Positions 5,679 to 43,978 of a DNA stretch of 64,000 nt are shown one piece after another. A program made the position numbers and the translations under genes. The notes below the pieces were generated by a model, which saw nothing but the letters and a program-made list of their open reading frames with translations, was not told the origin of the DNA and made no database searches. The stretch is from an uncultured Rhodothermaceae bacterium (lineage in GTDB: Bacteria; Bacteroidota; Rhodothermia; Rhodothermales; Bin80), in the NCBI GenBank assembly GCA_964639665.1, contig CAZXEU010000045.1, positions 2,367 through 66,366 on the forward strand, given 5' to 3'. How positions within the stretch are numbered: the first letter of the stretch is position 1; each line of letters opens with the position of its first letter.

Positions 5679-7037
5679 GTGCTGCTAAACAGACGCTCCT
5701 TCCTTCACGGCCTGAGTCTGGGGCTTGCGGGCGCTGCCAGCGCCGGCCGGCGCGCCAGTCCAAACTTTGTCATTTACGTCGTCGACGATCTGGGGTCCAC
5801 GGACGCAGGTTGCTACGGTAATCCGGTTATCCGGACGCCCGGACTGGACATGCTCGCGGAAAGCGGTACGCGATTTACGCACGCGTTTTGCACCACCGCT
5901 TCCTGCAGCGCGAGCCGGTCGGTCCTTCTGAGCGGTCAGCACAACCATGCTACCGGGCAGTATGGGCACATGCACAGCTTTCACCACTTCATCTCCTTTG
6001 CGGACCTGAAGACGCTGCCCGTACTGCTCGGCGAAGCCGGATACCACACGGTGCGTGCCGGGAAGTACCACGTCGCGCCGGAGTCCGTATACAGATTCAT
6101 TGAGCAGGTGCCTGCGGAAGGCGCATCTCCGTCCGAAATGGCTGAACGCTGCGGCAGCATCTTCCAACGCCGCGACAGCAGCAAGCCCTTTCTTCTCTAC
6201 TTCTGCACGACCGAACCTCACAGGCCGTTCCGGCGCGGCGGAAGCGATCCCGTTTCTGCCGACGACGTCATAGTGCCGCCATATCTGCCGGATATTGCCG
6301 AATGCAGGGAGGAGCTCGCTCTGTATTACATGTCCGTCCAGCGTGCGGACGCAGGCCTGCTTAGGCTGCTGGAGCTACTACGGGAATCAGGTCGATGGGA
6401 CGACACCGTGGTGGTGTTTGTCTCCGACAACGGCATCGCATTCCCGGGCGCCAAGACCACGCTTTACGAACCGGGTATGCGGTTACCGCTGGTGATGCGC
6501 ATCCCGGGACTGCCGGAAGGCCGCATTTGCGATGCCATGGTCTCGTGGGCGGATCTTGCGCCAACGCTTTTGGACCTGGCTGGCATACCGATTGACGCCG
6601 CCGCATTTCATGGGCGATCGTTCCGCCAGGCCATGCTTGAGGACAATCCCCGGGACTGGGACGAGGTCTTCGCATCGCACACGTTTCACGAGATCACCAT
6701 GTACTATCCCATGCGCGTGGTCCGTGATCGCAGATACAAGCTCATATGGAATATCGCTCACGGGCTGTCTTATCCCTTCGCGTCGGACTTGTGGGCCTCC
6801 CGGACCTGGCGCGCTGTCATCGATCAGGGCCTGGAAACGTACGGCCAGCGCTCCGTGGCAAGTTACCTGCACAGGCCGCCCTTCGAACTCTATGACCTGG
6901 AGGCGGACGAGCATGAAGTGCACAACCTGGCCGTCGACCCTGGCCATGAGAGCCTGCTTGAAGCCATGAAGGAGAGGCTTCGAGCCCATCAGGAACGCAC
7001 ATCGGATCCCTGGATAGTGAAATGGTCTTATGAATAG
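5679..7037 (+). CDS. Sulfatase (N-sulfoglucosamine sulfohydrolase-like) with Tat-type signal
   Basis: GTG start. N-terminus MLLNRRSFLHGLSLGLAGAASAG has a twin-arginine motif. FVIYVVDDLGSTDAGCYG...CTTASCSASRSVLLSGQ carries the C-x-A-x-R variant of the sulfatase signature. Confidence 0.88.
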   Translation: MLLNRRSFLHGLSLGLAGAASAGRRASPNFVIYVVDDLGSTDAGCYGNPVIRTPGLDMLAESGTRFTHAFCTTASCSASRSVLLSGQHNHATGQYGHMHSFHHFISFADLKTLPVLLGEAGYHTVRAGKYHVAPESVYRFIEQVPAEGASPSEMAERCGSIFQRRDSSKPFLLYFCTTEPHRPFRRGGSDPVSADDVIVPPYLPDIAECREELALYYMSVQRADAGLLRLLELLRESGRWDDTVVVFVSDNGIAFPGAKTTLYEPGMRLPLVMRIPGLPEGRICDAMVSWADLAPTLLDLAGIPIDAAAFHGRSFRQAMLEDNPRDWDEVFASHTFHEITMYYPMRVVRDRRYKLIWNIAHGLSYPFASDLWASRTWRAVIDQGLETYGQRSVASYLHRPPFELYDLEADEHEVHNLAVDPGHESLLEAMKERLRAHQERTSDPWIVKWSYE

Positions 7038-7046
7038 GTGTACACA

Positions 7047-8537
7047 ATGAACATGGCTCGCTTTACGACTATTGCCACGCTTTGCCTGGTTATGCTGGCC
7101 GGCTGCCAGGAAAGTGCGGAGCCAGCGCAGGACACTCCGCCACCTCGTCCCAACATCCTCTGGATAGTCGGCGAGAACCTGAAGCTGGACCTCGGCATCT
7201 ACGGCGCACCAAACGTGCACACACCGCACCTGGACTCCCTGGCGCGCGATGGGCTGCGGTTTACGCGAGTCTTCGCCACCTCGCCCGTATGCGCGCCGAG
7301 CCGATCGGCATTCATGACCGGCATGTACCAGACATCCACGGATACGCACAACATGCGCTCGCACCGTGACGATGATTTCCGTCTGCCGGCAGGCGTACGC
7401 CCGCTTACGCACTGGTTGCAGGACGCAGGCTACTTCACGGCCAATATCACCCACATTGGAGAACGCGAAGTGGGCACGGGAAAGCTGGATCTGAATTTTG
7501 TCAACGAAGGGCCGATCTATCAGTCGGATGACTGGGAGGAGCTTCGGCACCGGCAACCGTTTTTTGCCCAGATCAACACGCCCGAGGTCGAATACGACAT
7601 TTATGACCGGCAATCTGCCGAAAAGCCGCGCGTGAAGTGGGTCGGCGAGGACTGGCACCCGCAGGTGGCGACGGCGGAAAACGTTACGCCGCCGCCCTAT
7701 TACCCCGACCACGAAATCACCCGGCAGGAATGGGCGCGCTACCTCAATTCCGTATCCGGCATGGACGTGCGCATAGGCTGGATTATGGATCGGCTGCTCG
7801 CCGACGGGCTTGCGGACAACACCATAGTGGTCTTCTTCTCGGACAACGGCCGCCTTGAGGCACGGGGCATTCACTGGGCCTGGGACACCGGACTGCACGT
7901 TCCCATGATCATCCACTGGCCGACCAATTTCGAAGCTCCGCCGCAATACCAGCCGGGCGGCGTCAACGAGGAGGTGATCAGCCTCCTGGACCTTACGGCC
8001 ACTACGCTCTGGATGGCGGGCATAGAGCGCCCGCCGCTGATGCAGAGCCGGCGGTTTCTGGGACCGGATGCAGACCCGGCCCGGACGTATGCTTTCAGCG
8101 CCCGCGACAGGATCGATGAAACGGTGCTGCGCATTCGCTCCGTGCGCGGCGCGAGATTTCATTACCTCCGCAATGTCGAGGCGCAGCAGGGCTTCCCGAC
8201 GCTCAACCGGTACAAGGAGAAGTGCTTCCTGGTCAAGCCGCTGATGCGCACGCTGCACCAGGAAGGGCGCCTCACGGGTGCTGCATTGCAGCTCATGCAG
8301 CCCCTGCCCTACGAGGAGCTCTACGACACGGAGGCGGATCCGCACGAGATCAACAATCTGGCTGGCAGCGCAGAGCACCAGGGCATCCTGCAGCAATACC
8401 GCGCCGCGCTGGATACGTGGATTGCGGAAACGGGCGACCTGGGCGCCTGGCCGGAACCGGCCGAGATCGTGGAGCCGTTCGTCGCCGAAATGCATGACTG
8501 GTTCGGAACGCCGGACTGGCACTCCGGACCGCGCTAG
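7047..8537 (+). CDS. Cys-type sulfatase, lipoprotein
   Basis: ORF 7038..8537 (GTG abutting the previous stop) trimmed to ATG at 7047 (MNMARFTTIATLCLVMLAGCQES). Signature: NILWIVGENL...SPVCAPSRSAFMTGMY. Confidence 0.88.
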   Translation: MNMARFTTIATLCLVMLAGCQESAEPAQDTPPPRPNILWIVGENLKLDLGIYGAPNVHTPHLDSLARDGLRFTRVFATSPVCAPSRSAFMTGMYQTSTDTHNMRSHRDDDFRLPAGVRPLTHWLQDAGYFTANITHIGEREVGTGKLDLNFVNEGPIYQSDDWEELRHRQPFFAQINTPEVEYDIYDRQSAEKPRVKWVGEDWHPQVATAENVTPPPYYPDHEITRQEWARYLNSVSGMDVRIGWIMDRLLADGLADNTIVVFFSDNGRLEARGIHWAWDTGLHVPMIIHWPTNFEAPPQYQPGGVNEEVISLLDLTATTLWMAGIERPPLMQSRRFLGPDADPARTYAFSARDRIDETVLRIRSVRGARFHYLRNVEAQQGFPTLNRYKEKCFLVKPLMRTLHQEGRLTGAALQLMQPLPYEELYDTEADPHEINNLAGSAEHQGILQQYRAALDTWIAETGDLGAWPEPAEIVEPFVAEMHDWFGTPDWHSGPR

Positions 8538-8643
8538 TGGCGCTGGGCTCGGCGCTCGCTTGCGGGAATGCCGGCGCGAATGGTTGCCGGACCAGAATGC
8601 AAACACTACCTTGCCAAGCGCAACATTCCGGCAGCAATTCACT

Positions 8644-9498
8644 ATGAAACCGAGGGCTATGCATAGACTCGTGCCTATTCTGTTGCTGCTCGCAGGACCC
8701 GCCGCCCTTGCGCAAGACGCGCCGCGCCCAACCGAATCGGTGAAGCTGCTTGTGCCCTACCTTGAGCACGCGCCCGAGATCGACGGCTTGCTTTCCGAAT
8801 GGAAGGACTTTGCATTCACCGACGGGGTGTGGGACATATACCGGCTTCGGCAAACGTTCTGGTACGACGACGGACGCCGCAACAGGCTGACCGATCACGG
8901 AGGTGAAGGGCATCCGGAGACAGATCTGAGTGCCAGGTACTACATCGCCTGGGACGAGGACTACCTGTACCTGGGCGCCGAAGTGCGCGACAATGTCAAC
9001 GATGTCGAGGATGCAAACCACGAGCCGAGGAGCTGGTACGCGAAGGACAGCATCTGCTGGTTCATCGAGGCGCCCCGGGACGAGGCCCCGGAGTACTTCG
9101 GCCGCGGCGACAACGCGTTCTGCTTCGTTGCCGACAGCTCGATGCCGGACTACGGGGCGTGGTGGCGCCACGGCAGTCCAGAGGCATCCTACCTGGAGGA
9201 GCCGATTCCGGCTGATGCAGTCGATTATGCCCTGAACTTCGATCCCTGGGGCACGGGAAGCGCGGACTACATTCTGGAGGCGCGCGTACGGATGGCTCCG
9301 ACACTGGGCATAAGTGATCCGCGCTGGCAGCCGCCGGTAGTCGGTGACCTCTACGGAATGGAAATCGTGCACTGCGATCCTGATGGAGGCCGCTATGGAG
9401 GCCACTTCATGATCTATGGCACAGGGGATGACGATGCGACGTGGGCGCGTATGGTGCTGTCGGGACCCCAGCAGCCGATTGAGCGAAGGGCACAGTAG
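8644..9498 (+). CDS. Secreted carbohydrate-binding (CBM9-like / DOMON-like) domain protein
   Basis: ORF 8278..9498 trimmed to in-frame ATG at 8644 (MKPRAMHRLVPILLLLAGPAALAQ signal). PEIDGLLSEWKDF...YYIAWDEDYLYLGAEVRDNVNDV resembles CBM family 9-like modules. The family call is from memory. Confidence 0.55.
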   Translation: MKPRAMHRLVPILLLLAGPAALAQDAPRPTESVKLLVPYLEHAPEIDGLLSEWKDFAFTDGVWDIYRLRQTFWYDDGRRNRLTDHGGEGHPETDLSARYYIAWDEDYLYLGAEVRDNVNDVEDANHEPRSWYAKDSICWFIEAPRDEAPEYFGRGDNAFCFVADSSMPDYGAWWRHGSPEASYLEEPIPADAVDYALNFDPWGTGSADYILEARVRMAPTLGISDPRWQPPVVGDLYGMEIVHCDPDGGRYGGHFMIYGTGDDDATWARMVLSGPQQPIERRAQ

Positions 9499-9515: not shown

Positions 9516-10391
9516 TCAGCGACGCATTCTGCGGCGGCCGCTGCGAAAGATGGGGGAATTGAGGCTGGTAACCGCATCGCTAGCCATCCAAAGCGAGGGT
9601 GGTCGGCCTCCGCGAGAATGCGACAGGGACATGGATTCTGCCGGCGGGGGTGGCGGTGACCCGAAGGAGATGGCCGCAGTCTCGGCTTCTTCCCAGGCCG
9701 GTGGCGGGCCGAATCGCGCGTCAGGTGGCGACGCTTGCCGGCCTGAAGCGTAACCGGGCGCACGCACTCCGATCTTGCTGAAGCAGTCGTTGTCGCGCAC
9801 CTTGCGCTGGAAGTTGCCCGGATCCAGCTCCGTCTCCCAGATGGTCTCGTACACGGTGCGCAGCTCGGTAATGGTAAACCGGGGACCGCAAAACCGGGAT
9901 GCCACGGGAGTGGTCTCGAGCCGGGACTGGAGACGCCGGTAGGCATCCAGGACTATCCGCTTGTGGTCGAATGCCAGCTGGAAGTCCCTGCCTCTTATCG
10001 AAGCCATGGGCACAAGCGCAGCCGATGCAGCGTCGCTACCCCCGACGGGGCGCGGGAGGAACGCGCAGGCTGCCCAGTAGACCACCGTAACCACCCTCAT
10101 GCGGGGGTCTCTCTCTGGCGCGCCGTAGGCATGCAGTTGCTCCATGTAGACCGCCGATGCCTCGATGCCTGTCTCCTCCTCCAGCTCACGCCCGGCTGCC
10201 ACCCGCAGGTCCTCTCCTGGCAGCAGGAATCCGCCGGGCAGCGCCCAGGCTCCCCGGTAGGGAGCTACGCCGCGCTCAATGAGCAGCACCTGGAGCGCAT
10301 CGTCCTCAATGGCAAACAGCACCAGATCCACCGTGACCGCTACCGGAGGGAAGGAGGCCGGGTCGTAGTTGCTGAGTTCTCCTTCTGGCAT
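9516..10391 (-). CDS. Nudix hydrolase-domain transcriptional regulator, NrtR-like (Nudix plus C-terminal winged helix)
   Basis: ORF opens with TTG at 10493 and is trimmed to ATG at 10391 (MPEGELSNYDP...). Nudix box: LPGGFLLPGEDLRVAAGRELEEETGIEA. The C-terminal half, FQLAFDHKRIVLDAYRRLQSRLETTPVASRFCGPRFTITELRTVYETIWETELDPGNFQRKV, matches the NrtR-type wHTH. A Pro-rich tail ends in GGRPPSLWM. Confidence 0.8.
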   Translation of the reverse strand: MPEGELSNYDPASFPPVAVTVDLVLFAIEDDALQVLLIERGVAPYRGAWALPGGFLLPGEDLRVAAGRELEEETGIEASAVYMEQLHAYGAPERDPRMRVVTVVYWAACAFLPRPVGGSDAASAALVPMASIRGRDFQLAFDHKRIVLDAYRRLQSRLETTPVASRFCGPRFTITELRTVYETIWETELDPGNFQRKVRDNDCFSKIGVRAPGYASGRQASPPDARFGPPPAWEEAETAAISFGSPPPPPAESMSLSHSRGGRPPSLWMASDAVTSLNSPIFRSGRRRMRR

Positions 10392-10727
10392 GCTGAAGCC
10401 GGATTCCGGATGGGGGCCTTCAGAATATACGCTTGGGCACGCAGGCGGAATACCTGTGCGCGAGGCGGCGCCCAATAGGTAGCCGATGCTCAAACGTGGT
10501 TTGAGCGCCCGGTCGGGTGGATATGGAGCCCGGCCCGTACGCCCGGTGAAAGAAGCACGTCAGCAAGCTCACTATCAAGGGTTCGCTGCACGGCTAATGT
10601 GGTGGGTAACCCGACTAGCGAAACCACCCTCCCGCCTACCCGGACACGCCACGCGGCGGTGCAGCAACGCGCGCACGCCGGCAAGATTCGTCGCGTCTAC
10701 GTCCATCCTGGAAATTCCAACCGATTA

Positions 10728-10756
10728 TTGACTTAATGACAATAATATATTATATT
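10728..10756 (+). promoter_or_regulatory. Sigma-70-like promoter (TTGACT, 17 bp spacer, TATATT) overlapped by a perfect 12-bp palindrome ATAATATATTAT
   Basis: TTGACT lies at 10728-10733, the spacer at 10734-10750 and TATATT at 10751-10756. The palindrome at 10742-10753 overlaps the -10 element. This is a very AT-rich patch in an otherwise GC-rich intergenic region, 55 nt upstream of the 10811 ATG. A GAGGA lies about 8 nt before that ATG. Confidence 0.5.
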
Positions 10757-10810
10757 CAAGAATACAATAACCCTTCACCGCCTTCCACTCACACTCATGA
10801 GGACCACGAC

Positions 10811-11755
10811 ATGACTGAAGCAAGGAGCATCCCCCACCTCGAAACGGTCTCGGTTGGACGCCCTGTTACGAGGCTTGGAACGTCTTTATTCCCGCTATAC
10901 CTGCACGCAAACGCCTTGCCGGAGATTGCGACAGGCCGGGCGTCCAAACTGATCATCCAAGAGCTGCCCCACGCCTCCGTGCCAAGGCTGTCTGTTCACA
11001 ATCCGGACAAGCTGCCCGTCCTGATCGTGGAAGGCGAACAATTCGAGGGTGGATTGCAGAACCGCACGGTCAACGTAACAATTCTGATTGCACCGGGTAC
11101 GACACTGAAGATTCCCGTTTCCTGCGTAGAGGCCGGTCGGTGGGGCAGACGGCGTGCCTACCGTCGCGGCGCAGATTTCGCCCCGCGGAACGTGCGACAT
11201 CGCGTGCAGGAATCCGTGTCGGAATCCGTTCGCAGGGAGGGCTCCCGTCTATCCGATCAGCGCGCTGTCTGGGAGGCCGTCGATACCGTGCTCGACGATG
11301 TGGACGTGGCATCGGCGACCCGCGCGGTATCGGACGCTTCGCAGGCATTCAGCCGCAATCCGGAGCGCCTGCAAGCGCGGGAGGAACTGGTCTCCATGGG
11401 CCCTCTCCCGGAGCAGTGCGGCGTTGCTTTTTCCCACGGGCCGTGGGTCAGCGAGATTCAGATGTTCGGCGCCCCTCATCTCCTGGCAGAGCACTGGGGA
11501 GCCCTTGTCAGCTCCCACATGCTTTCGCAACCACTCCAGAGAGGCAGGCCGTCCGCAACCGGCGTGCTGGCTGTCCTGGGCCGTTTCGGTTCCTTGCCTT
11601 CCGAGAATTCCCGGGGCGTCGGCCTTGGCACCGAGCACCGGGTCGAAGACGAGTGGGGATCCGGGCAAGCTCTCTCACTGGATGGAGCGTTCCTGCACGG
11701 TACCTATTACACGAAGAAACCGGCCGGCCGCCGCGTCAGGCACAGCGCCCTGTAG
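10811..11755 (+). CDS. ARPP-1 / DUF6569-like protein (uncharacterised family computationally linked to NAD+/ADP-ribose systems)
   Basis: ORF 10736..11755 trimmed to ATG at 10811, because the upstream ATG sits inside the promoter. The core VPRLSVHNPDKLPVLIVEGEQFEGGLQNRTVNVTILIAPGTTLKIPVSCVEAGRW matches my recollection of the family hallmark (...LEGEEL.GAKQNR.LN.S.L......IPVSCVEQGRW). It is followed by ...SDQRAVWEAV...SATRAVSDA. The assignment is from memory and needs an HMM search. Confidence 0.6.
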   Translation: MTEARSIPHLETVSVGRPVTRLGTSLFPLYLHANALPEIATGRASKLIIQELPHASVPRLSVHNPDKLPVLIVEGEQFEGGLQNRTVNVTILIAPGTTLKIPVSCVEAGRWGRRRAYRRGADFAPRNVRHRVQESVSESVRREGSRLSDQRAVWEAVDTVLDDVDVASATRAVSDASQAFSRNPERLQAREELVSMGPLPEQCGVAFSHGPWVSEIQMFGAPHLLAEHWGALVSSHMLSQPLQRGRPSATGVLAVLGRFGSLPSENSRGVGLGTEHRVEDEWGSGQALSLDGAFLHGTYYTKKPAGRRVRHSAL

Positions 11756-12532
11756 CATAAATCTGCCGAGAAGTCCTTCTGGAGAAGGTGAGCGAGGCCG
11801 TTGAATCATGCTTTCCGGCCGGAGAGCTCCGAGTCTAAATCGCTTCGAGAGATTAGTGTGAACAGCTGGAAAAGTATCTTGGCCCGAAATACTGCATCCA
11901 GCGCGGATCCGGCCTGGCCAACAGGCAGCAAGGCGCAAAGAGGTGCAGCGGCGCGCGGCATGGATAGAGTGGAGGTCAACAGGATATTGGGGCCCCTTGG
12001 CCACCATCCTCCGCGGTCAATGTCAGTGCAATCCATCAGTCCCGTGCAGTATGATGTGAGCGCCCTGATCGGGTCGCCGGGCGAGCCTGTCGGAAGGAGG
12101 CAGGCCCCGATGTGGCAACTCGTGAAGGACTGCGACCGGCCAGAAGCAATAGACCGGATGGCCAAGAACCCGGCGCCTGTCATTTCCGGGAATCTGAAGA
12201 ACAAAACAGAATGCCGGAACGGCCAATGCTCATTTCTTGTTCGTTCAAGGTTTGTTTTTGCTGGGCAAGGCTCGCTGGCCATTTCGCCCTGCCGAATACC
12301 GTTAACGCCACCCTCGATTCCTTGCGCCCGCCGACGTTCCAGCAGCTTACAGAACGCGGCCGGGTCCTGGCAGAGCGACGCGTCGCAGAGTCAGCCCTCA
12401 CCAACATGGGCCACAAGTTTACGACGCCTTAGCACGCGATGGGCAAGACGCGCAGAATCCGTGAGGGCGTAATGGAGCAACTGCACACAAGCCCCTTTCG
12501 GCTGCCCGACGCCCAAGACATTGTAGACCGGG

Positions 12533-13900
12533 ATGCCTTTGACGCCTGAATGCCAGCACGTCGAGTGGAAGCGATCTTGGCGGGACGAGTACTTGAAGTG
12601 GATCTGCGGGTTTGCCAACGCGCAGGGCGGCGTTCTCCAGATCGGCAAGCGCGACTCTGGAGAGGTCGTAGGAGTCGAGCGAGTCCTCAGGCTGCTTGAG
12701 GAGATTCCCGGCAAGGTGCAGTCTCTGCTCGGCATTGTCGTGGACGTGAACCTGAAGTCGGAGTCTGGTCGCGAATACCTTTAAATCGCGGTGGAGCCAC
12801 ACCCGGACCCGATCAGCTACAAGGGGGAGTTCCACTATCGCAGCGGAAGCACGAAACAAGTGCTGAGGGGTGCCTCGCTAAGCCGCTTCCTGCTTAAACG
12901 GTACGGACGGACATGGGACGACGTGCCGCTGCCAGGCGTTGGCCTTACGGACCTTGACGGGCGGGCGGGCGAATCGTTTTGCCAAAGGGCCGCTGAAAGC
13001 GGCCGACTACCGGCGGAGGTCGTCGGAAAATCGGTCGAGAGCGTTGTCGAGAACCTGAACCTCCGGGACGGCGGGCGCCTCAAGAGAGCTGCGGCGCTTC
13101 TATTCCATTCGTCGCCCGAACGGATCGTACCGGACGCGAATGTCAAGATCGGCTAATTCCGGGGCTCGGAGTTACTCTTTCAGGACGAGGTCAAGGGCAA
13201 CCTGTTCATGCAGGTAGATCGCGTGATGGACCTGCTCTATTCAAAGTACACGCGCGGCCTCGTCTCCTACGACGGCATCTACCGGTTGGAGACCTTCCCT
13301 GTGCCACGCGAGGCGATGCGTGAAGTGGTGATCAATGCGGTCATCCACCGTGACTACGCGAGCGCCACGACGATCCAGATTCGGGTTCAGGACGATCGGA
13401 TTGCGATCTGGAATGCAGCCAATCTGAATCCCGAATGGACGGCTGAACTGCTTACCGAGGAAATGGCGTCCCGGCCACATAATCCACGTATCGCCTACGC
13501 CTTCTTCCGGGCCGGCATGATCGAGGCATGGGGGCGCGGCATACGGCGGGTAATGGACATCTGCCGAGAGGCCGTGAATCCGGTGCCGACCTGGCGACTC
13601 GAGCCGGGCGGGGATGGGTTATGGGTCCAGTTTCTGTTCTCGGACACCTACCAAGCGGCCGACGCGGCGGTGCGAGAAAGTGGTGCATGGGACACTACCC
13701 AGAAAACTACCCAGAAGTCCACGCGGGACCGGATCATTGATTGCCTTGGCGCCGAGCCCAGGCTGACCCGAGCGGAACTCGCCGAGCGCGTCGGCCTGTC
13801 GCCGGAGGGTATAAAGTACTACTTGCGGAACCTGAAAGCGGACGGACTCATCCGGCGAGTCGGCTCGGACAGGGCGGGCTACTGGGAGGTGCTCAAGTGA
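12533..13900 (+). pseudogene. Schlafen/AlbA_2-type ATP-binding putative transcriptional regulator (AlbA_2, HATPase_c_4-like and C-terminal wHTH domains), interrupted by two in-frame TAA codons
   Basis: Three track ORFs (12533..12784, 12791..13156, 13208..13900) are all in one frame. Read-through gives a contiguous 456-codon protein: ...ECQHVEWKRSW...ICGFANAQGGVLQIG...REYL*IAVEPHPDPISYKGEFHYRSGSTKQVL...VKIG*FRGSELLFQDEVKGNLFMQVD...INAVIHRDY...RPHNPRIAYAFFRAGMIEAWGRGI...LTRAELAERVGLSPEGIKYYLRNLKADGLIRRVG. The stops are at 12782-12784 and 13154-13156. Confidence 0.75.
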
Positions 13901-14335
13901 CCGGCCAAGGCGAACTCGACTTCAGTACACGCCGGCGAATCTTCGCCGGAACTGGCACTGCAACCGAGGCTTGGTGCCGAGAATTCGTGCGGTAGTCGAC
14001 TGTATCGCGCAACAGTTGCGAGGACCTCTGCGCACGGGCGCAACATGGCAGGGCCCGGGATCCGGTGCCGGACGACGACCCTTCTTGAGCCGTACGGCAG
14101 GGCCTCCTGAACAGCTACTTGGCTGCTGGAAGGGCGCTATGGCTTGGGGAGGCCAACTGCCCCCCGGCCGGTAGTCTATCAGGCTCCCCTGCCCTCCGCT
14201 TCGCAACGCGGCATGGCACCCGGCGCGATTGCCAGCCGGACGGTCAGCGCCCGGCTGGCTTGTCCCACATCCGCAACTTGCCCAAGGCCTGACCGGTTTG
14301 TAGCTTGCTTTCCTACCAACCGGAACACCAGACAC

Positions 14336-15334
14336 ATGAAAACACGCAAACTATTGATACCCTGCCTCCTGTTTTCCCTGCCCTTGACGGGACAGGTGGC
14401 CGCGCAGGACGACGCCGATGCATTTATGGGCCGGTGGGCCCTCCACCTGCCCGGTGGAGCGGGCTGGCTCGAAGTCCATGACGACCACGGCTATCTGGAT
14501 GCGTCGCTTCTCTGGTACGGCGGTAGTGTCCTGCCCGTGGCCAGCGCCAACATTTCAGACGGAGTGCTGACCGTTACCAGGACCAATTCCGTAAACCGGG
14601 GAGCTGGTCGCACGCACACCATCACGAATACGCTTGAGCTCAAGGTGGACGGCGATGGCATTAGCGGAACGGCTGTCTTCCCGAGCCGCACCGGCCTGGG
14701 CCGACAAATGGTGGAATTCCGGGGCGAGCGCATCCCCGATCTGCCTCCCACGCCCGATATGTCGCAGATCACGTACGGAGAACCTGTGGAGCTCTTTAAC
14801 GGCACGGACCTCGCCGGTTGGTCCCTGGTCAATCCCGACCAGAAGAACGGGTTCATGGTCGAAGACGGGATCCTGATCAACAATCCCGTGCAGCCGGAAG
14901 GCGAAGAGTATGTCTCGTATGGCAACCTGCGCACCGATGCCACATTCGAAGACTTTCGGCTGACGCTTGATGTCAATGTGCCGGAAGGCAGCAACAGCGG
15001 CGTCTACCTGCGCGGCATCTACGAAGTCCAGGTCGTGGACAGCTACGGGCGCGAGGCGGACTCGCACAATATGGGAGGACTCTACAGCCGCATTACCCCG
15101 AATGCCACGGCCGAGAAGCCGGCCGGCGAATGGCAGACCATGGACATGACGCTGTACAAGCGCCACCTGACCGTCGTTCTGAATGGCACCAAGATCATTG
15201 ACAATCAGCCCGTTCTCGGCGTAACGGGCGGAGCGCTTACGGCAGACGAGCATTCGCCCGGACCCATCTACCTTCAGGGCGACCATGGGCGCGTTCTCTA
15301 CCGCAACCTCGTACTTACGCCCATCATCAATTGA
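14336..15334 (+). CDS. DUF1080 (3-keto-disaccharide hydrolase-like) domain protein, secreted
   Basis: ORF 14144..15334 trimmed to ATG at 14336 (MKTRKLLIPCLLFSLPLTGQVAAQ). The C-terminal half, FNGTDLAGWSLV...GNLRTDATFEDFRLTLDVNVPEGSNSGVYLRG.YEVQVVDSYG...GPIYLQGDHGRVLYRNLVL, is typical of DUF1080. Confidence 0.85.
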   Translation: MKTRKLLIPCLLFSLPLTGQVAAQDDADAFMGRWALHLPGGAGWLEVHDDHGYLDASLLWYGGSVLPVASANISDGVLTVTRTNSVNRGAGRTHTITNTLELKVDGDGISGTAVFPSRTGLGRQMVEFRGERIPDLPPTPDMSQITYGEPVELFNGTDLAGWSLVNPDQKNGFMVEDGILINNPVQPEGEEYVSYGNLRTDATFEDFRLTLDVNVPEGSNSGVYLRGIYEVQVVDSYGREADSHNMGGLYSRITPNATAEKPAGEWQTMDMTLYKRHLTVVLNGTKIIDNQPVLGVTGGALTADEHSPGPIYLQGDHGRVLYRNLVLTPIIN

Positions 15335-15365
15335 CATCCTGTTCCACTATCCGGCCAGTTGCCTC

Positions 15366-16715
15366 ATGCCCCAGCACATTACCGTCAGCCGAAGAGACTT
15401 CATGCGAATGGGCGCCCTGGGCACTGCCGCTGTGGGCATGGGAGCCCGCACGGGCGCGGCCACTGCCAGGGCGGTACCACCGAGCGAACGCATCACGCTC
15501 GGCTTCATTGGAGTAGGTGCCCGAGCGCACCAGCTCATTGAGGCCCTGAATGCGTTCCCCGAGGCCGAGATCGTGGCCGTCTGCGACGCCTACAAGGGCA
15601 GGGTCAGCCGCGCCGTCGCCCGAACCGGCGGTCGCGCCCAGGCCCATGACGACTACCGCGAAATCATCGAGCGGCCCGATATCGACGCAGTGGTGATTTC
15701 GACTCCCGACCACTGGCACTACAGGCATAGCGTCGATGCTCTGAATGCGGGCAAACATGCCTACATCGAAAAGCCGATGACGTACTCCGTTGACGAGGGC
15801 CTCGGCATCATCGAAGCACAGCGCCAGAGCGGAGTCGCCGTGCAGGTTGGAAGTCCTGGTCCCAGCGGAGTGCTTGCACAACAGGCACGGCAAATGATCA
15901 CGGCCGGAAAGATCGGCCAGGTAACCATGGTGCGCGCCGCCATGAACCGCAATACGGCCTCCGGTGCCTGGATATATCCCATCCCGCCGGATGCTTCGCC
16001 GCAAACGGTTGACTGGGAGCTTTTCCTTGGAAACGCGCCGAAGCTGCCGTATAGCCCGGAGCGCTTTTTCCGCTGGCGGTGCTACCGGGATTATTCCGGC
16101 GGCATGTCCACGGACCTGTATGTTCATACGTGCACAACCATAAACTTCGTCATGGGCGCACCCATGCCGGAGAGCGCCGTCGCAATGGGCGGGCTCTACA
16201 GGTGGAAGCATTCTAGGGATGTGCCCGATACCATCAATGCATCGCTGAAGTATCCCGAGGGATTTCTCGTCAGCCTGAGCGGTACCTTCAGCAACCAGGG
16301 CGGCGCCGCGGGCGGCATACGGTTCCTGGGTACCGAGGGCTCGCTTATACTGGGCCAGACGCTAACCTTCATTCCGGAGCATGTGAACGAAAGCAACGGC
16401 TGGATCGTGGACAGCTGGCCGGAGGACCTGGCGAGGGACTACTACGAAGATCCGGACGTCCGCCAGGCCGAGCTGCCGCGCTCCCGCGAGGCGCGCGCAC
16501 TCGCGCCACGTGAAGTCTACCAGGCGGAAGGGGAGTCGGATATCATGGCCCACCTTGCGGAGTTCTTCCATGCGGTGCGCGAGGGCGTTCCTACGCGCGA
16601 AGACGCTACGGTAGGACATCACGCGGCTTCCTGCGCGCACATGATCAATATCGCGCTGGACCGCCAAGGTGTCGTGCGCTGGGATGCCGGCAAGGACACG
16701 CTGGCTGCCGGCTGA
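15366..16715 (+). CDS. Gfo/Idh/MocA family oxidoreductase with Tat signal (periplasmic)
   Basis: Trimmed to ATG at 15366. MPQHITVSRRDFMRMGALGTAAVGMGA is a twin-arginine signal. The Rossmann start is ITLGFIGVGARAHQ, followed by VVISTPDHWH and the EKPM motif. Confidence 0.9.
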   Translation: MPQHITVSRRDFMRMGALGTAAVGMGARTGAATARAVPPSERITLGFIGVGARAHQLIEALNAFPEAEIVAVCDAYKGRVSRAVARTGGRAQAHDDYREIIERPDIDAVVISTPDHWHYRHSVDALNAGKHAYIEKPMTYSVDEGLGIIEAQRQSGVAVQVGSPGPSGVLAQQARQMITAGKIGQVTMVRAAMNRNTASGAWIYPIPPDASPQTVDWELFLGNAPKLPYSPERFFRWRCYRDYSGGMSTDLYVHTCTTINFVMGAPMPESAVAMGGLYRWKHSRDVPDTINASLKYPEGFLVSLSGTFSNQGGAAGGIRFLGTEGSLILGQTLTFIPEHVNESNGWIVDSWPEDLARDYYEDPDVRQAELPRSREARALAPREVYQAEGESDIMAHLAEFFHAVREGVPTREDATVGHHAASCAHMINIALDRQGVVRWDAGKDTLAAG

Positions 16716-40978: not shown

Positions 40979-43978
40979 CTATCTGAGTGAATGGAGGTAC
41001 GTTACGACATCAACCAGGTCCTCGCGGGACATCAGCGGTGTGAGATCCGGCATGAGAGACTGCTCAAGCCGCTCCGACGTCAATACTTCCGTTCGGGCAA
41101 TCGTTCGCTCGAGGCCCGGTGCCATGCGCAGCACCACATGATCAGGGCCTGCACCTACTTCATAGCCCGTCACCTGAGCTCCGTCCAGAAGCGTGAGTCT
41201 GAGCCCCTCGTAGCCGTAACTGATGCCCGCCGCCGGGTGCAGTATCGCCACAAACAAGGCCTCCTCGGTCAGTTTTGATCCGATGCCGGACAGGCTTGGC
41301 CCGAAGGTCGAGACACCGTGGCATTCATTGCAGAAAGTGGCGTACACAACCTCTCCGCGCTCGGCATTGCCGGCCGCAGCGACGAGAGAGCGCAATGGCG
41401 GCAGGGGCCGGGCATTTCGGTCAGTAGGCAGGCCCAGCAGCTGTTCTGCTTCCCTTCTCACTTCCACGGACCAAACGTTCAGAAGAACGCTCGCCGCGCT
41501 GGATGCCAGTGGTTCAGGCAGGCGGCCGTTCCGCGCCAGGCCCAGCAACCGCTGCTGGCCTGCAGCCGAACGCGCAAGCGCTCGCGTGGCCTGGCGGCGC
41601 ACATCTGCGGCATACTCCTCGGACAACATGATCTCTTCCAGCAGTTGCTGCGCAGCAGGCAGGCCGATGCCTTGAAGAAGACGCACTACGGAGGCCGTCT
41701 GACCTTCCGCAATGGCCTCCCTGAACGGATCTGGGCCGCGAAGCGCAAGAAGCGCGCGGGCAGCGCGTTGCTCCAGCTCCGGCGTGGCCCCGCCAAAGGC
41801 CATCGCATGCAGCTCGCCCGCAGAACCCCCATTCCCGAAGCGTTCCACCAGGTCGAGAAACGCCGGGCTGCCCGCGTTCAGGTGCAGGGCCTCGGCAAGC
41901 AGCACAGTGTCAACGGGTATAGCCGCCAGATGCCGTAGCGCCCGGTGGAGTTGCGCAGCGCGGTCTACCCGCACACCCACCAGGACATCCTGCAGGAGCG
42001 CGTGCTTCTCCGGGCCTCCGTGGAAGTCGAACGCACGAAAATACCGATCTCGCTCGGACATATTCCGCGTGGTATCGCTTGCCAGCCGGGCAAGAAAGGG
42101 CAGCGCCCTGGTCGTGCGGGCCCGCCAGATTATATCCCGTCCCGCGGGCGTGTCCCACTCCTCTTGCGTTTCCAGCCACGCGGGAAAAAACCGATCCCAC
42201 TGGCCCTCTGCCCCGATGCCCAGCGCCTCCAGGTACCACCGATCCGATCCATCGTGTCGTTCAGCCAGATCCGCCCAGGCCCGCGCGGCCTCAGGGTGGG
42301 GACTCCCCCGCAGCGCAAGTGCCGCTTCACGCCGAACGCGTGCGGACGTATCCCGCGCTTGCTCCGCTGCCAGCGGCGCCATTGCGATGCCCAGACTTCT
42401 GGCAACGCGCAAGGCGGTTGCCCTGAGATCGGGGTCAGGATCCCTCAGGGCATCTTCCAGGTGGCTTTTTCGAAGCCTGCCCAGCAGCCAGAGCGCCCGT
42501 GCCCGGCGGCGGGAATCCCCATTTTCCCATAATTCAACAAGTGCTTCTTCGGCTCCGGCACCCCATTCCTCCAGAGAGAGAAAGGCCTGCGCCTGCGCAT
42601 CCATATTGGGATTTGCAAGCGCCCGCACAGCGGCTTCCGGCGTTTGGTATGCCGGCGCGGCCACTTCATACTTCGAATCGGGCGGTGCCACGCGGTAAAT
42701 GCGCCCCCGCTGCTGATCCACGGCCTGATTGCCGCCGACCGTTGCATCATACCAGTCCGCCACAAACAGGGAGCCATCAGGTGCCACGGCTACATCGGAT
42801 GGTCTAAACCACTGGTCACGCGGGCTTCGCAGGATATCAACCACCCTAGCCCGATAGCCCGCCCCGCTAACGGTCAACGGATATGCCCTGACTACGCCGG
42901 GAGATGCGTCCGCATGTATCAATTGGCCCCGAAATGGCTCCGGCAGCAGCTCGCCCTCGTAGACCGCTATGCCGGCTGGAGATCCTGCGCCGGTTATGAG
43001 CACATTAGGCACGACGCCCGGATCCCGCTGGTGCCAGTGCCGCGCAGGGATCTCGTCGTGCATGCCGGTTCTGGGCATTCTCCAGTGGGCACCCGTTACT
43101 TCGTCGAGGTACCCGAAATTGCCTCCTTCCATCACATAGACAATGCGCGCAGCACGGTTGCCGTCATCGTCGTTGTCGCTCTGCCACATCATGCCGTAGG
43201 CATCCACGGCCACTTCGTAGCTGTTGCGAAAGTTGTGGGCGAGCACTTCCACGTTCGAACCATCAACTGCGGACCGGAATACCATGCCTTCACGGTAAAG
43301 GCGGCCGGAAGCGATGACGGAACCTGTAGCACTTGCTGCCACCGGCCTCCCGTCGGAATCCATCAGCTGGCGACCCGCATTGCCGTAGTTGAAGTAGAGC
43401 TTCCCGTCCGGCCCGAACACGAAGGCATGGACGCCGTGGTCATCCTGCAGGCCGCCAATCCCCGTAAACAGCGTGTCCTTGCTGTCAGGACGGTCATCAC
43501 CGTCATTGTCCGTGAAGACGAATACATGCGGGCTGCTGGACACCAGAACCCGGTTTCCGTAGACCAGTATCCCCAGCGCCGCGTCTATGTCGCTTCCCTG
43601 GTAGTAGACAACGCGTCTGTCTGCCGCGCCGTCGCCATCCTCGTCTTCCAGAATCACGATCCGGTCTCCCATTTCCTGGACCGCGTGATGGGGATTGTAG
43701 TCCGGCCTGTAGTTTACGGCCTCGCATACCCAGACCCTTCCGCGGTCATCGATGGCCAGATTGGTCGGGTTTACAATCATCGGCTCGGCGGCAAAAAGCG
43801 TGGCCGCAAGGCCGTCTGCTACCTCCAGATTCTCCAGGGCGAATTCGGGCGCCCTTCTCGGGTCATCCGACCCGAGGTCCACGTCCGGCAGGCTGCGGCC
43901 GCAGCCCGCGCACAGTGACACCAGCATTACCGCAAGGGAAAAGCAGATGTAGGGCCGCTTGTCGCAGGGGACCGCCAT
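40979..43978 (-). CDS. PVC-type heme-binding membrane-bound dehydrogenase-domain protein (beta-propeller, HEAT repeats, C-terminal cytochrome c), lipoprotein
   Basis: The track ORF opens with GTG at 44098. ATG at 43978 gives [26 protein letters not shown], a lipoprotein-like signal. [10 protein letters not shown] and DNDGDDRPD propeller loops are followed by HEAT-like repeats and C-terminal CNECHG...GPSLSGIG. Confidence 0.85.

Follow-up and report, generated by a model that had tools for sequence, protein, structure and literature searches.

Among the systems predicted computationally by Iyer, Burroughs, Anantharaman and Aravind (Viruses 14:1977), one brings together Nudix-HTH or WYL regulators, ARG, phosphatases, vWA and ARPP proteins (Iyer et al., 2022, PMC9503650, section 3.8), and the same paper lists two-gene neighbourhoods in which ARPP is joined by HIRAN, a WYL regulator or a deacetylase. 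The trigger proposed there is ADP-ribose that ARG frees from modified proteins, and ARPP, with a fold unrelated to characterised domains (a beta-meander core plus an inserted beta-barrel) and, in the ARPP-1 family, an absolutely conserved cysteine and glutamine, was proposed to act on the ribose of ADP-ribose (Iyer et al., 2022, PMC9503650). For the NrtR regulators, Rodionov et al. (2008, PMC2330246) described operators that are 21-bp palindromes with a GT-N7-AC core, release from DNA in vitro by ADP-ribose, a correspondence between an intact Nudix signature and ADP-ribose pyrophosphatase activity, family members that regulate arabinose and xylose use in Bacteroidetes, and divergons of unknown function, nrtR<#>nrtX-nrtY, in Proteus, Hahella, Kineococcus, Frankia and Streptomyces.

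The window, by which I mean the whole 64-kb stretch of DNA analysed here, holds an NrtR-family regulator gene and an ARPP-1 gene that diverge from one another and form a self-contained, recurrent two-gene unit. This pair is a minimal, ARG-less variant of the ARG-centred, Nudix/WYL-regulated ARPP systems of Iyer et al. (2022), who had already given both the Nudix-HTH/WYL plus ARPP system and the ARPP plus WYL pairs, so the initial annotation of this DNA implies more newness than there is. The features of the locus are as follows.

9516..10391, minus strand: NrtR-family regulator gene, 291 aa (Pfam NUDIX and NrtR_WHD)
9537..9611, minus strand: conserved C-terminal tail motif of the regulator, residues 261-285, GGRPPSLW...LNSPIFRS (homologue alignment)
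9732..9887, minus strand: NrtR-type winged-helix DNA-binding domain, residues 169-220 (PF21906)
10164..10232, minus strand: Nudix box, residues 54-76, GFLLPGEDLRVAAGRELEEETGI, a complete fit to GX5EX7REUXEEXGU
10725..10745, no strand assigned: predicted operator site 1, TTATTGACTTAATGACAATAA, a 21-bp NrtR-type palindrome on the -35 hexamer, one mismatch to consensus
10728..10756, plus strand: sigma-70-type ARPP-1 promoter, TTGACT, 17 nt, TATATT, score 10/12
10750..10770, no strand assigned: predicted operator site 2, TTATATTCAAGAATACAATAA, on the -10 hexamer and likely transcription start, two mismatches to consensus
10799..10803, plus strand: Shine-Dalgarno-like GAGGA, read from the sequence, 7 nt before the ATG at 10811
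10811..11755, plus strand: ARPP-1/DUF6569 gene, 314 aa (PF20208, E 1.4e-57)

That the pair is a unit of its own, as had been suggested from this one locus, is borne out across genomes. A search with ARPP-1 only, in which the Nudix regulator played no part, yielded 80 loci, and a divergent Nudix regulator lies beside ARPP-1 in 32 of them, amid different flanks; in 43 of the loci ARPP-1 shares 43% identity or more with the window's, and all 32 pairs belong to this group, the other 37 loci, more distant, being unpaired, and the Nudix-linked ARPP-1 proteins make up one clade in a neighbour-joining tree. The paired loci come from at least seven phyla or classes, with members in Rhodothermales, several Acidobacteriota orders, Spirochaetia, Alphaproteobacteria, Acidimicrobiia, Thermodesulfobacteriota and Longimicrobiales, and the spread of ARPP-1 across phyla is patchy. 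Names of sponge-associated taxa recur among the carriers. When the look-up was reversed, each of four Nudix homologues (88, 55, 52 and 51% identity) had a divergent ARPP-1 gene adjoining it, and clustering all neighbours gave no recurrent partner besides the Nudix regulator, which is the only conserved neighbour in the ARPP-1 clade holding the window. Both genes are under purifying selection (dN/dS of 0.15-0.25 for the regulator against its relatives and about 0.19-0.23 for ARPP-1) and diverge at similar rates.

In the window and in 21 other loci the regulator and ARPP-1 stand alone, and ARG, phosphatase, chaperone and nuclease genes are all missing; an ARG gene is directly downstream of ARPP-1 or fused to it in five sister loci (L031, L032, L034, L035 and L038), in 12 a vWA domain is fused or adjacent, and ARG-DSP phosphatase genes occur in L037 and L045. 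As first described, no ARG, macro, Sir2, TIR or NAD-biosynthesis gene adjoins the pair in the window; ARG (PF03747) is not found in its neighbourhood, and both a phosphatase (rhodanese-phosphatase or other) and a peptide-binding chaperone (vWA and others) are absent. The ARG-release trigger of Iyer et al. cannot apply locally, because the window is without ARG.

The regulator had been read as a Nudix-wHTH protein with an NrtR-type C-terminal domain, and Pfam profile searches agree, matching NUDIX (PF00293) at 4e-17 and NrtR_WHD (PF21906) at 1.9e-10, above its cut-off; the Nudix box quoted earlier is found at residues 54-76 with a full signature fit and is intact in 34 of 38 related regulators. 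Homologues place the start at the methionine of MPEGEL and not at an upstream TTG at 10493. Sequence searches of the PDB returned 2fml (2.9e-29), So NrtR 3gz5 (7.8e-25) and AraR 5bs6 (3.7e-24), with 3gz8 also among the matches, and in Foldseek the AF2 model of the regulator resembles the structures of both AraR and NrtR (E 3e-18 to 7e-15, target TM 0.69-0.73), aligning both domains of 3gz5 and 3gz6 (target TM 0.70-0.73). The NCBIfam NrtR equivalog is missed by far (121.8 bits against a cut-off of 400). Behind the Nudix domain and the winged helix, which carries the invariant pattern FTI(S/T)ELR..YE..W...D.GNFQR in 20 homologues, a disordered, variable, low-complexity linker leads to the conserved C-terminal tail, in which G262, R263, P264, S266, W268 and P280 are invariant among the same 20; the tail lies outside every Pfam model in the search of the regulator, and 26 of the 38 module loci encode its GRPxSxW motif. 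The AF2 pLDDT is below 50 in the linker (residues 210-260), 83 at residues 261-270 and 76 at 271-280, with a strand at 267-270.

Between the two genes, the promoter before ARPP-1 had been called the strongest-looking of the window, and only two sites in the 64 kb do reach 10/12, this one, which is the sole one on the plus strand, and an equal at 42156 on the minus strand. The initial annotation also placed a perfect 12-bp palindrome on the -10 element, and ATAATATATTAT at 10742-10753 is just that, but as an operator it was rejected, being the junction of a 46-bp imperfect palindrome (10725-10770) that is built of two 21-bp operator sites; these NrtR-type palindromes, and not the AT palindrome, are the conserved element. 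Their consensus across phyla is TTATTGT-N7-ACAATAA, and the left half of each site contains a promoter hexamer, the -35 in site 1 and the -10 in site 2; in the window the exact AC core is found in the right half-sites only, the left halves reading GA and TT because they also serve as promoter hexamers. With up to three mismatches allowed, the consensus occurs in the 64 kb at exactly the two promoter sites, against 0.35 expected from shuffles, and about 0.0015 matches would be expected at up to one mismatch by an estimate from base composition. At the same three-mismatch threshold 59 matches were found in 28 of 34 module loci scanned, 58 of them in the divergon region, and six of the 34 have no recognisable copy, while 49 non-module control loci (about 0.5 Mb) gave three weak matches. 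The two-site layout is present in 22 of the 34 related loci, the window counted in, site 1 is kept in L002, L006, L087 and L003, TTGAC(A/T) recurs in or beside site 1 across phyla, and the exact operator core, found in 13 loci, is each time between the two genes. The predicted regulator very probably controls ARPP-1 through these sites. Autoregulation is not established in the window, since 334 bp separate the operators from the start codon of the regulator gene, and the regulon may hold further genes because the scan of this genome spanned 64 kb. AT-richness at the locus is limited to the promoter/operator stretch at 10700-10810 (39.6% GC): the ARPP-1 gene, said to lie in a low-GC patch, has a CDS of 63.1% GC against a window mean of 61.8%, at the 75th percentile of equal-sized windows.

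The 314-aa protein is ARPP-1/DUF6569, as first proposed: PF20208 matches over its whole length (positions 2-297 of the 297 in the profile; 195.8 bits, cut-off 27), the core peptide quoted earlier is present, and RefSeq labels the relatives 'DUF6569 family protein'. Searches gave 549 homologues and 8,324 cluster representatives at E<=1e-3. The AF2 model (pLDDT 90.9, pTM 0.89), beta-rich at the N terminus with helical inserts, has no solved or viral structural relative (best E 0.12 in the PDB and 0.04 in BFVD, TM at most 0.16), and a PDB sequence search gave no match. E51, Q83, R85, S104, C105, E107, R110, W111, Q150 and W154 are invariant in all 82 ARPP-1 sequences compared, down to 30% identity, and across these no invariant histidine stands beside the cysteine. 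Nothing in the sequence or the model points to a substrate, and the searchable literature gives no experimental characterisation of ARPP-1, in agreement with the initial annotation.

As an explanation of the whole locus, I regard as probable a two-gene divergon in which the NrtR-family one-component regulator represses the neighbouring ARPP-1 gene. At rest, regulator dimers would occupy both 21-bp operators, covering the -35 and -10 of the strong ARPP-1 promoter, and RNA polymerase would be kept out because the operators contain these hexamers; a nucleoside-diphosphate-sugar ligand, most likely free ADP-ribose, would then bind the Nudix domain, the ligand-bound regulator would leave the DNA and ARPP-1 would be made. 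Because its Nudix box is intact, the regulator would probably also hydrolyse its own inducer and reset the switch. By analogy with the family, the case for ADP-ribose or a close relative as the ligand is evenly balanced. The ligand is read from family resemblance alone, and the structurally close AraR binds L-arabinose, not ADP-ribose. ARPP-1 would be the sole output, a cytoplasmic protein with a fold that has no solved relative and an invariant Cys/Glu/Arg/Gln cluster, and it could be an enzyme or a covalent scavenger of ADP-ribose-derived ribose moieties or adducts that works without an ADP-ribosylglycohydrolase partner; the general proposal that it processes ADP-ribose-derived sugar moieties is a tentative one. 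Unlikely in its entirety is the larger picture of ARPP-1 as a new-fold thiol enzyme (Cys105/Glu107/Arg110/Gln83) in a complete ADP-ribose stress circuit, with a self-resetting catalytic Nudix repressor, an ADP-ribose on-switch, ARG-independent removal or capture of ribose adducts on cell components, a conserved regulator tail (GRPxSLW...SPIxRR) that might link the two proteins by docking or latching, and horizontal spread among phyla.

The pair could instead be an anti-phage abortive or effector module, which I consider rather unlikely, in which a silent, toxic or phage-directed ARPP-1 is released upon infection by ADP-ribose stemming from phage ADP-ribosyltransferases or NAD+-cleaving host defences. 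A strong, doubly occluded promoter would suit the pattern usual in regulated defence operons, tightly off and then strongly on, Nudix and WYL regulators swap in related systems that have been read as conflict systems (Iyer et al., 2022, PMC9503650), the more distant ARPP-1 loci adjoin WYL regulators (L065), a PD-(D/E)XK nuclease and ARG-phosphatase genes, and the phylum distribution is patchy with variable flanks. However, ARPP-1 matches no PADLOC model, was not found in 50,697 phage genomes and is near-absent from plasmids (three weak matches in 72,556) and viral contigs (one fragment in 2.9 million), the dN/dS of about 0.2 bears no sign of an arms race, and a transcriptional response is slow for abortive infection. 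The regulator itself has a weak generic Nudix match in PADLOC (PDC-S07, 2e-5). The flanks of the 38 module loci, window included, are moreover overwhelmingly metabolic, mostly sulfatases, enolase-superfamily enzymes, reductases and epimerases (among 137 flanking proteins, Sulfatase 10, MR_MLE 6, Phosphodiest 5, and Aldo_ket_red, Epimerase and Glyoxalase 4 each), with a handful of defence-like PADLOC matches, such as PDC-S01 in 4 of the 137. In the window they comprise sulfatases, a CBM9-like protein, a 3-keto-disaccharide hydrolase, a Gfo/Idh/MocA oxidoreductase and a xylose-isomerase-like TIM barrel. One further gene had been taken as a sign of an accessory or defence-island context.

12533-13900: decayed Schlafen-type gene, a single frame with two in-frame TAA stops at 12782 and 13154

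The two stops confirm that it is decayed, and an intact homologue of 471 aa shares 80% identity with it, but the gene lies on a 2.5-kb indel that is missing from the closest relative, and with flanks devoted to sulfatases and sugar metabolism the defence-island setting was rejected.

The same flanks lend themselves to a sugar-catabolism regulon, a reading with a slim chance of being right, in which the regulator would sense a pentose or another sugar in the manner of AraR, and ARPP-1 would be a carbohydrate-active enzyme that belongs with the surrounding polysaccharide-utilisation genes. The best structural match of the regulator is indeed the L-arabinose sensor AraR from Bacteroides, arabinose and xylose regulation is known for NrtR-family members in Bacteroidetes (Rodionov et al., 2008, PMC2330246), sulfatase and sugar-type genes abound around the window's pair, as do enolase-superfamily, aldo-keto reductase and epimerase genes at other loci, and a secreted ARPP has been found paired with a sugar deacetylase (Iyer et al., 2022, PMC9503650). 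Yet the pair stays constant while the flanking genes change from locus to locus, within the 64-kb window the operators are absent from the flanking genes, the additions in sister loci are ARG and vWA and not sugar enzymes, and the intact Nudix box points to a nucleoside-diphosphate ligand; chance adjacency to sugar genes is likely, given how many sulfatase and sugar genes these genomes carry in any case.

A very slim chance attaches to a classical NrtR, which would chiefly keep NAD+ in balance by acting on distant genes of NAD biosynthesis or salvage and for which ARPP-1 would be a minor or incidental regulon member. Fold and operator type do place the regulator in the NrtR family, and the sequence inspected amounts to 64 kb here and about 13 kb per related genome, but none of the 38 module loci has an NAD gene next to the pair, operators occur in the divergon only throughout the sequence examined, with no further copies in the 64-kb window, the regulator clade tracks ARPP-1 reciprocally, and the NCBIfam equivalog threshold is widely missed. 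The absence of NAD genes lowers this reading and not family membership, because the family includes non-NAD regulons. Chance adjacency of unrelated genes, with an AT-rich promoter palindromic by accident, has a negligible probability and was rejected on the comparative data, for although the 12-bp palindrome is made of A and T only, the two genes stay together across phyla while their flanks change, the operator motif is both conserved in module loci and specific to them, and two matches stand side by side where shuffles predict 0.35.

How, then, does the favoured divergon of regulator and ARPP-1 compare with what has been described? With the ARG-centred ADP-ribose systems it shares the ARPP family, the class of one-component Nudix-HTH negative regulators and, in the proposed logic, a default-off state that an ADP-ribose-type ligand induces, and the ARG and vWA named in that paper occur in its sister loci, whereas the window has no ARG, phosphatase, chaperone or nuclease. 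A Nudix regulator alone is not listed as a partner in the two-gene ARPP neighbourhoods of Iyer et al. (2022), and neither the operator motif, the promoter-embedded layout of the sites nor the C-terminal tail of the regulator is described there. Like the NrtR family (reference structures 3GZ5/3GZ6/3GZ8 and 2FML), some members of which also have an intact Nudix box, the regulator joins a Nudix domain to a C-terminal winged helix and has predicted 21-bp palindromic operators with a GT-N7-AC core, placed between regulator and target in a divergon; unlike that family, it has ARPP-1 as its predicted target instead of NAD biosynthesis or salvage genes, falls well short of the NCBIfam equivalog cut-off and carries an extra conserved tail after a disordered linker. 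WYL-domain regulators of the BrxR and CapW type control defence operons, and the anti-phage activity of those systems has been demonstrated. They too are one-component, ligand-sensing repressors, divergent from or upstream of the genes they silence, and WYL regulators replace the Nudix regulator beside more distant ARPP-1 genes; they differ in sensor fold and DNA-binding domain. AraR of Bacteroides thetaiotaomicron (5BS6/5DEQ; E 3e-18, target TM 0.69) has the same two-domain architecture and controls arabinose utilisation, with a sugar and not ADP-ribose as its ligand, but the window's regulator keeps the full catalytic Nudix signature and belongs to a clade tied to ARPP-1, ARG and vWA, not to sugar operons. 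The nrtR<#>nrtX-nrtY divergons may be the same module as the regulator/ARPP-1 pair.

In the best explanation so far, a repressor of the NrtR family would silence the gene for ARPP-1, a DUF6569-family protein, through predicted operators embedded in the ARPP-1 promoter. The computed basis for this reading consists of the family identities of the two divergent genes (together, the module), their conserved adjacency, an operator pair placed on the promoter, an intact Nudix signature and purifying selection. The features concerned lie in the window as follows.

5679-9498: upstream flanking genes, two sulfatases and a CBM9-like protein
9516-10391, minus strand: regulator, 291 aa, ATG start at 10391 (MPEGEL...), with a NUDIX domain at residues 26-146 (PF00293, E 4e-17) and an NrtR winged-helix domain at residues 169-220 (PF21906, E 1.9e-10)
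9537-9611, minus strand: conserved regulator C-terminal peptide R-G-G-R-P-[AP]-S-L-W ... L-N-S-P-I-x-R-R, residues 261-285
10725-10745: candidate operator site 1, one mismatch to consensus, covering the -35 hexamer
10728-10733: -35 hexamer TTGACT
10750-10770: candidate operator site 2, two mismatches to consensus, covering the -10 hexamer
10751-10756: -10 hexamer TATATT
7 nt 5' of the ATG at 10811, plus strand: GAGGA
10811-11755, plus strand: ARPP-1 gene, 314 aa, matching Pfam ARPP-1 end to end (PF20208, E 1.4e-57)
12533-13900, plus strand: Schlafen AlbA_2/HATPase_c_4/HTH_24 pseudogene, a single reading frame with in-frame TAA at 12782-12784 and 13154-13156
14144-16715: downstream flanking genes past an indel, a 3-keto-disaccharide hydrolase and a Gfo/Idh/MocA oxidoreductase (a xylose-isomerase-like protein also lies on this side)

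The initial annotation had matched the core of the 314-residue protein to the ARPP-1/DUF6569 family, and this assignment was right, because the protein matches PF20208 and its relatives are labelled 'DUF6569 family protein' in RefSeq. An alternative ATG at 10736 cannot start the gene because it lies 5' of the -10 hexamer, and no obvious signal peptide was seen by eye at the N terminus. The AlphaFold2 model (pLDDT 90.9, pTM 0.89) has a beta-rich N-terminal half, helical segments and two further beta units; the Foldseek search of such a model, which had been proposed at the outset, found nothing significant in the PDB (best E 0.12, TM at most 0.15) or among the predicted viral structures of BFVD (best E 0.04). 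Likewise, the family profile had 0 matches to PDB sequences, and ARPP-1 matched no NCBIfam or PADLOC model. A comparison of 82 sequences, reaching down to 30% identity, leaves E51, G75, G80, Q83, R85, P102-V103-S104-C105, E107, G109-R110-W111, Q150, W154, G204 and G273 as invariant positions, with no histidine among them, so that a classical Cys-His pair is unlikely. The family is large, with 8,324 cluster representatives at E<=1e-3 and 1,736 at E<=1e-30, and the literature yielded no description of the bacterial family beyond Iyer et al. 2022, where ARPP is predicted to be an enzyme acting on the ribose of ADP-ribose, possibly with covalent chemistry at a cysteine (PMC9503650). A mobile-element origin is rejected, since there are no matches in phage genomes, only 3 weak ones in plasmids and one broken IMG/VR fragment; ARPP-1 is essentially absent from phages and rare on plasmids. 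The fragment, the sole ARPP-1-like match in 2.9 million viral contigs (L086:5001-5273), covers residues 26-111 and has no intact reading frame.

Fold, domain order and operator type all place the regulator in the NrtR family, and it is not a classical NAD regulator. The ATG at 10391 is preferred as its start because homologues begin there. Its nearest solved relatives by sequence in the PDB are Enterococcus faecalis 2FML (2.9e-29), Shewanella NrtR 3GZ5 (7.8e-25) and Bacteroides AraR 5BS6 (3.7e-24), and both domains of its AlphaFold2 model align with these structures (Foldseek E 3e-18 to 7e-15, target TM 0.69-0.73). The Nudix box at residues 54-76 fits GX5EX7REUXEEXGU completely, and the box is intact in 34 of 38 related regulators. 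Behind a variable disordered linker of 0-80 aa comes a C-terminal tail peptide with no counterpart in Pfam, in which G262, R263, P264, S266, W268 and P280 are invariant among 20 homologues; it is modelled at pLDDT ~80 as a short strand, which suggests that the tail may dock onto a folded domain or a partner.

The initial annotation had asked whether the two genes recur side by side, and they do. A scan for the ARPP-1 pattern, with one genome per species, gave 80 loci at 30-61% identity, and in 32 of them tblastn with the window's Nudix protein hit a divergent homologue (40-63% identity) next to ARPP-1. Every one of the 32 belongs to the set of 43 loci in which ARPP-1 shares at least 43% identity with that of the window; the same search returned no regulator homologue at the 37 more distant loci. 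In the reverse direction, four of four Nudix homologues (88, 55, 52 and 51% identity) proved to be divergent from an ARPP-1 gene in different surroundings, so the pairing exceeds chance. All-against-all clustering of neighbours gave the Nudix protein as the sole recurrent partner (32 loci, with sulfatases next at 11) and no third conserved gene. Carriers include Rhodothermales, Bryobacterales, Vicinamibacterales, Thermoanaerobaculia, Spirochaetia, Rhodobacteraceae and other Alphaproteobacteria, Acidimicrobiia, Thermodesulfobacteriota and Longimicrobiales, and a neighbour-joining tree groups the Nudix-linked ARPP-1 proteins into a single clade. The window is probably of Rhodothermales origin; its closest relative, a 1.48-Mb metagenomic contig, preserves synteny at 88-90% amino-acid identity, followed by a 'Rhodothermales bacterium' chromosome at 59-61%. 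Purifying selection acts on both genes, which have diverged at matching rates: dN/dS for ARPP-1 and the regulator is 0.19 and 0.25 in comparison with the relative at 88-90%, 0.19 and 0.18 with one at 76-80%, and 0.23 and 0.15 with the one at 59-61%.

Nested within the Nudix-linked clade is one Vicinamibacterales subgroup without the regulator (L020, L021, L024, L026, L030 and L036 among the compared loci), where both regulator and operator are lost and which may represent displacement of the regulator; in L020 a cupin/AraC-binding-like protein stands upstream in its place. Elsewhere, a probable toxin-antitoxin pair, made up of a PIN-domain gene and a small ORF upstream of it, has been inserted between the two genes in a Bryobacterales locus (L007:4876-6001), where operator-like sites persist beside both regulator and ARPP-1, and a Vicinamibacterales locus (L056:5769-6859) appears to hold a degraded copy of the module, with nothing left but overlapping pieces of ARPP-1 (residues 136-304) and of the regulator (residues 149-249). 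By record titles and sample accessions (L006-L045, L062, L087-L090), the named carriers include Candidatus Spongiisocius and Spongiisociaceae, several bins bear the labels COS, APA, RHO3 or SB0664, probably those of sponge MAG sets, and many more carriers are metagenome assemblies with UUID-style isolate names, apparently from a single project. The module may be over-represented among sponge symbionts.

When all 39 regulator-bearing loci are tallied, including the window and four reached via the Nudix protein, 22 have the regulator and ARPP-1 only, 12 add a vWA domain and 5 add an ADP-ribosylglycohydrolase (ARG), and therefore the window carries the minimal form, the commonest in this sample. 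In the vWA loci the domain is either an N-terminal fusion to ARPP-1 or the product of a separate gene, which lies immediately upstream or, as a divergent gene of ~200 aa, immediately downstream. The ~200-aa Pfam-less proteins 3' of ARPP-1 in Acidobacteriota loci, considered as a third conserved gene, are such divergent vWA domains. ARG lies directly 3' of ARPP-1 or is fused to it, in all five cases in Alphaproteobacteria; a neighbouring clade (L037, L045) has an ARG-dual-specificity-phosphatase fusion, and more distant ARPP-1 genes adjoin WYL/PafBC-type regulators or a PD-(D/E)XK nuclease.

The operator motif became apparent in the short intergenic regions (56-130 bp) at related loci, where a 21-bp palindrome, TTATTGT-N7-ACAATAA, is repeated, mostly in two copies spaced 24-37 bp centre to centre. 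Allowing up to three mismatches, the pattern has 59 matches in 28 of 34 module loci, 58 of them inside the regulator/ARPP-1 divergon, against three weak matches in 49 non-module loci (~0.5 Mb); the exact 12-base core occurs in 13 loci, every time between the two genes. The 64-kb window has exactly two matches, with 0.35 expected from shuffles. According to Rodionov et al. 2008 (PMC2330246), NrtR proteins mostly have operators in the form of 21-bp palindromes around a GT-N7-AC core, and the motif found here is of exactly the same kind. The ARPP-1 promoter is one of just two sites in the window at 10 of 12 sigma-70 consensus matches, and a promoter hexamer makes up the left half of each operator site; the left half-sites are off consensus because they double as hexamers. 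Across phyla, site 1 repeatedly contains TTGACA, and the left edge of site 2 repeatedly reads TATTGT or TATTAT; in compact divergons both promoters must overlap operator sites. A 12-bp AT palindrome (10742-10753) had been proposed as the operator, but it is the two 21-bp sites on either side that are conserved, and the palindrome only marks where they meet; a palindrome search returned 10725-10770 as a 46-bp imperfect palindrome spanning both. Among the four closest relatives this promoter/operator block is the best-conserved piece of otherwise poorly alignable intergenic DNA.

In the window the regulator's start codon lies 334 bp from the operators. A scan for RNA elements gave no Rfam match in the long intergenic region or anywhere else in the window. 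The region holds a 34-bp block at 10547-10580 (TGAAAGAAGCACGTCAGCAAGCTCACTATCAAGG) that is strongly conserved in L087, L002 and L006, the three Rhodothermales-like relatives, which share the core AAGAAGCACGT exactly, amid DNA that is barely alignable; the block is unique in the window, does not occur at other loci, and could be a promoter for the regulator or a further binding site.

The surroundings are not those of a defence island, a context that the initial annotation had raised. Sulfatase (10) and MR_MLE (6) dominate the 137 nearest flanking proteins at 38 module loci, with Phosphodiest (5) and Aldo_ket_red, Epimerase and Glyoxalase (4 each) next and few PADLOC matches, and the Schlafen-like gene downstream, decayed as first described (80% identical to an intact 471-aa homologue in L002), sits on a 2.5-kb stretch (11757-14250) wholly missing from the closest relative, L087, where the 3-keto-disaccharide hydrolase gene directly follows ARPP-1. 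The pseudogene is unrelated to the module. The same order of flanking genes in two Rhodothermales relatives (L087 and L006) indicates a stable chromosomal neighbourhood for degrading sulfated glycans. Nor is the ARPP-1 gene low in GC, as had been thought by eye: its coding sequence is 63.1% GC against a window mean of 61.8%, and the AT-rich stretch is limited to 10700-10810 (39.6% GC).

NrtR proteins bind palindromes of this type and are released from DNA by ADP-ribose in vitro, and an intact Nudix signature accompanies ADPR pyrophosphatase activity in them (PMC2330246). On the proposed reading, two regulator dimers would occlude the ARPP-1 promoter and so repress the gene, ADP-ribose or a near relative would be the inducer, the regulator would hydrolyse that inducer to reset the switch, and ARPP-1 might act on ADP-ribose-derived sugar moieties or adducts with no need for ARG. 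The circuit might serve against phages or in damage control.

ARPP-1/DUF6569 is a large family without a solved structure, structural relative or tested function, assigned to NAD+/ADP-ribose biology by gene neighbourhood alone, and the module is of interest mainly because it offers the simplest handle on it. As the smallest natural context of ARPP-1 (one sensor-repressor, one promoter with two predicted operators, one output gene), it makes direct experiments possible, and the 22 of 39 loci with nothing else attached suggest that ARPP-1 can function without ARG, phosphatase or chaperone partners. It would also extend NrtR-type regulation beyond NAD metabolism, with promoter hexamers set in operator half-sites.

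The description nearest to this unit is that of the ARG-centred system by Iyer et al. 2022, a co-occurrence of ARPP with ARG, phosphatases, Nudix-HTH or WYL regulators and chaperones such as vWA (PMC9503650); the window's unit works like the regulator-plus-effector core of that system but lacks ARG, its defining feature. The two-gene ARPP neighbourhoods named there, with HIRAN, a WYL regulator or a deacetylase (PMC9503650), do not include this pair, which is the Nudix-regulator counterpart of the ARPP and WYL-regulator pair. Table 1 of Rodionov et al. 2008 lists nrtR<#>nrtX-nrtY divergons, with no function assigned, for Proteus mirabilis, Hahella chejuensis, Kineococcus, Frankia and Streptomyces (PMC2330246), and their layout is similar to the regulator<>vWA-ARPP-1 arrangement. 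The kind to which the window's unit belongs is known so far purely as prediction; what is new is that the minimal pair dominates in a cross-phylum ARPP-1 clade, that the operators follow a consensus and are fused with the promoter hexamers, and that the regulator has a conserved C-terminal tail.
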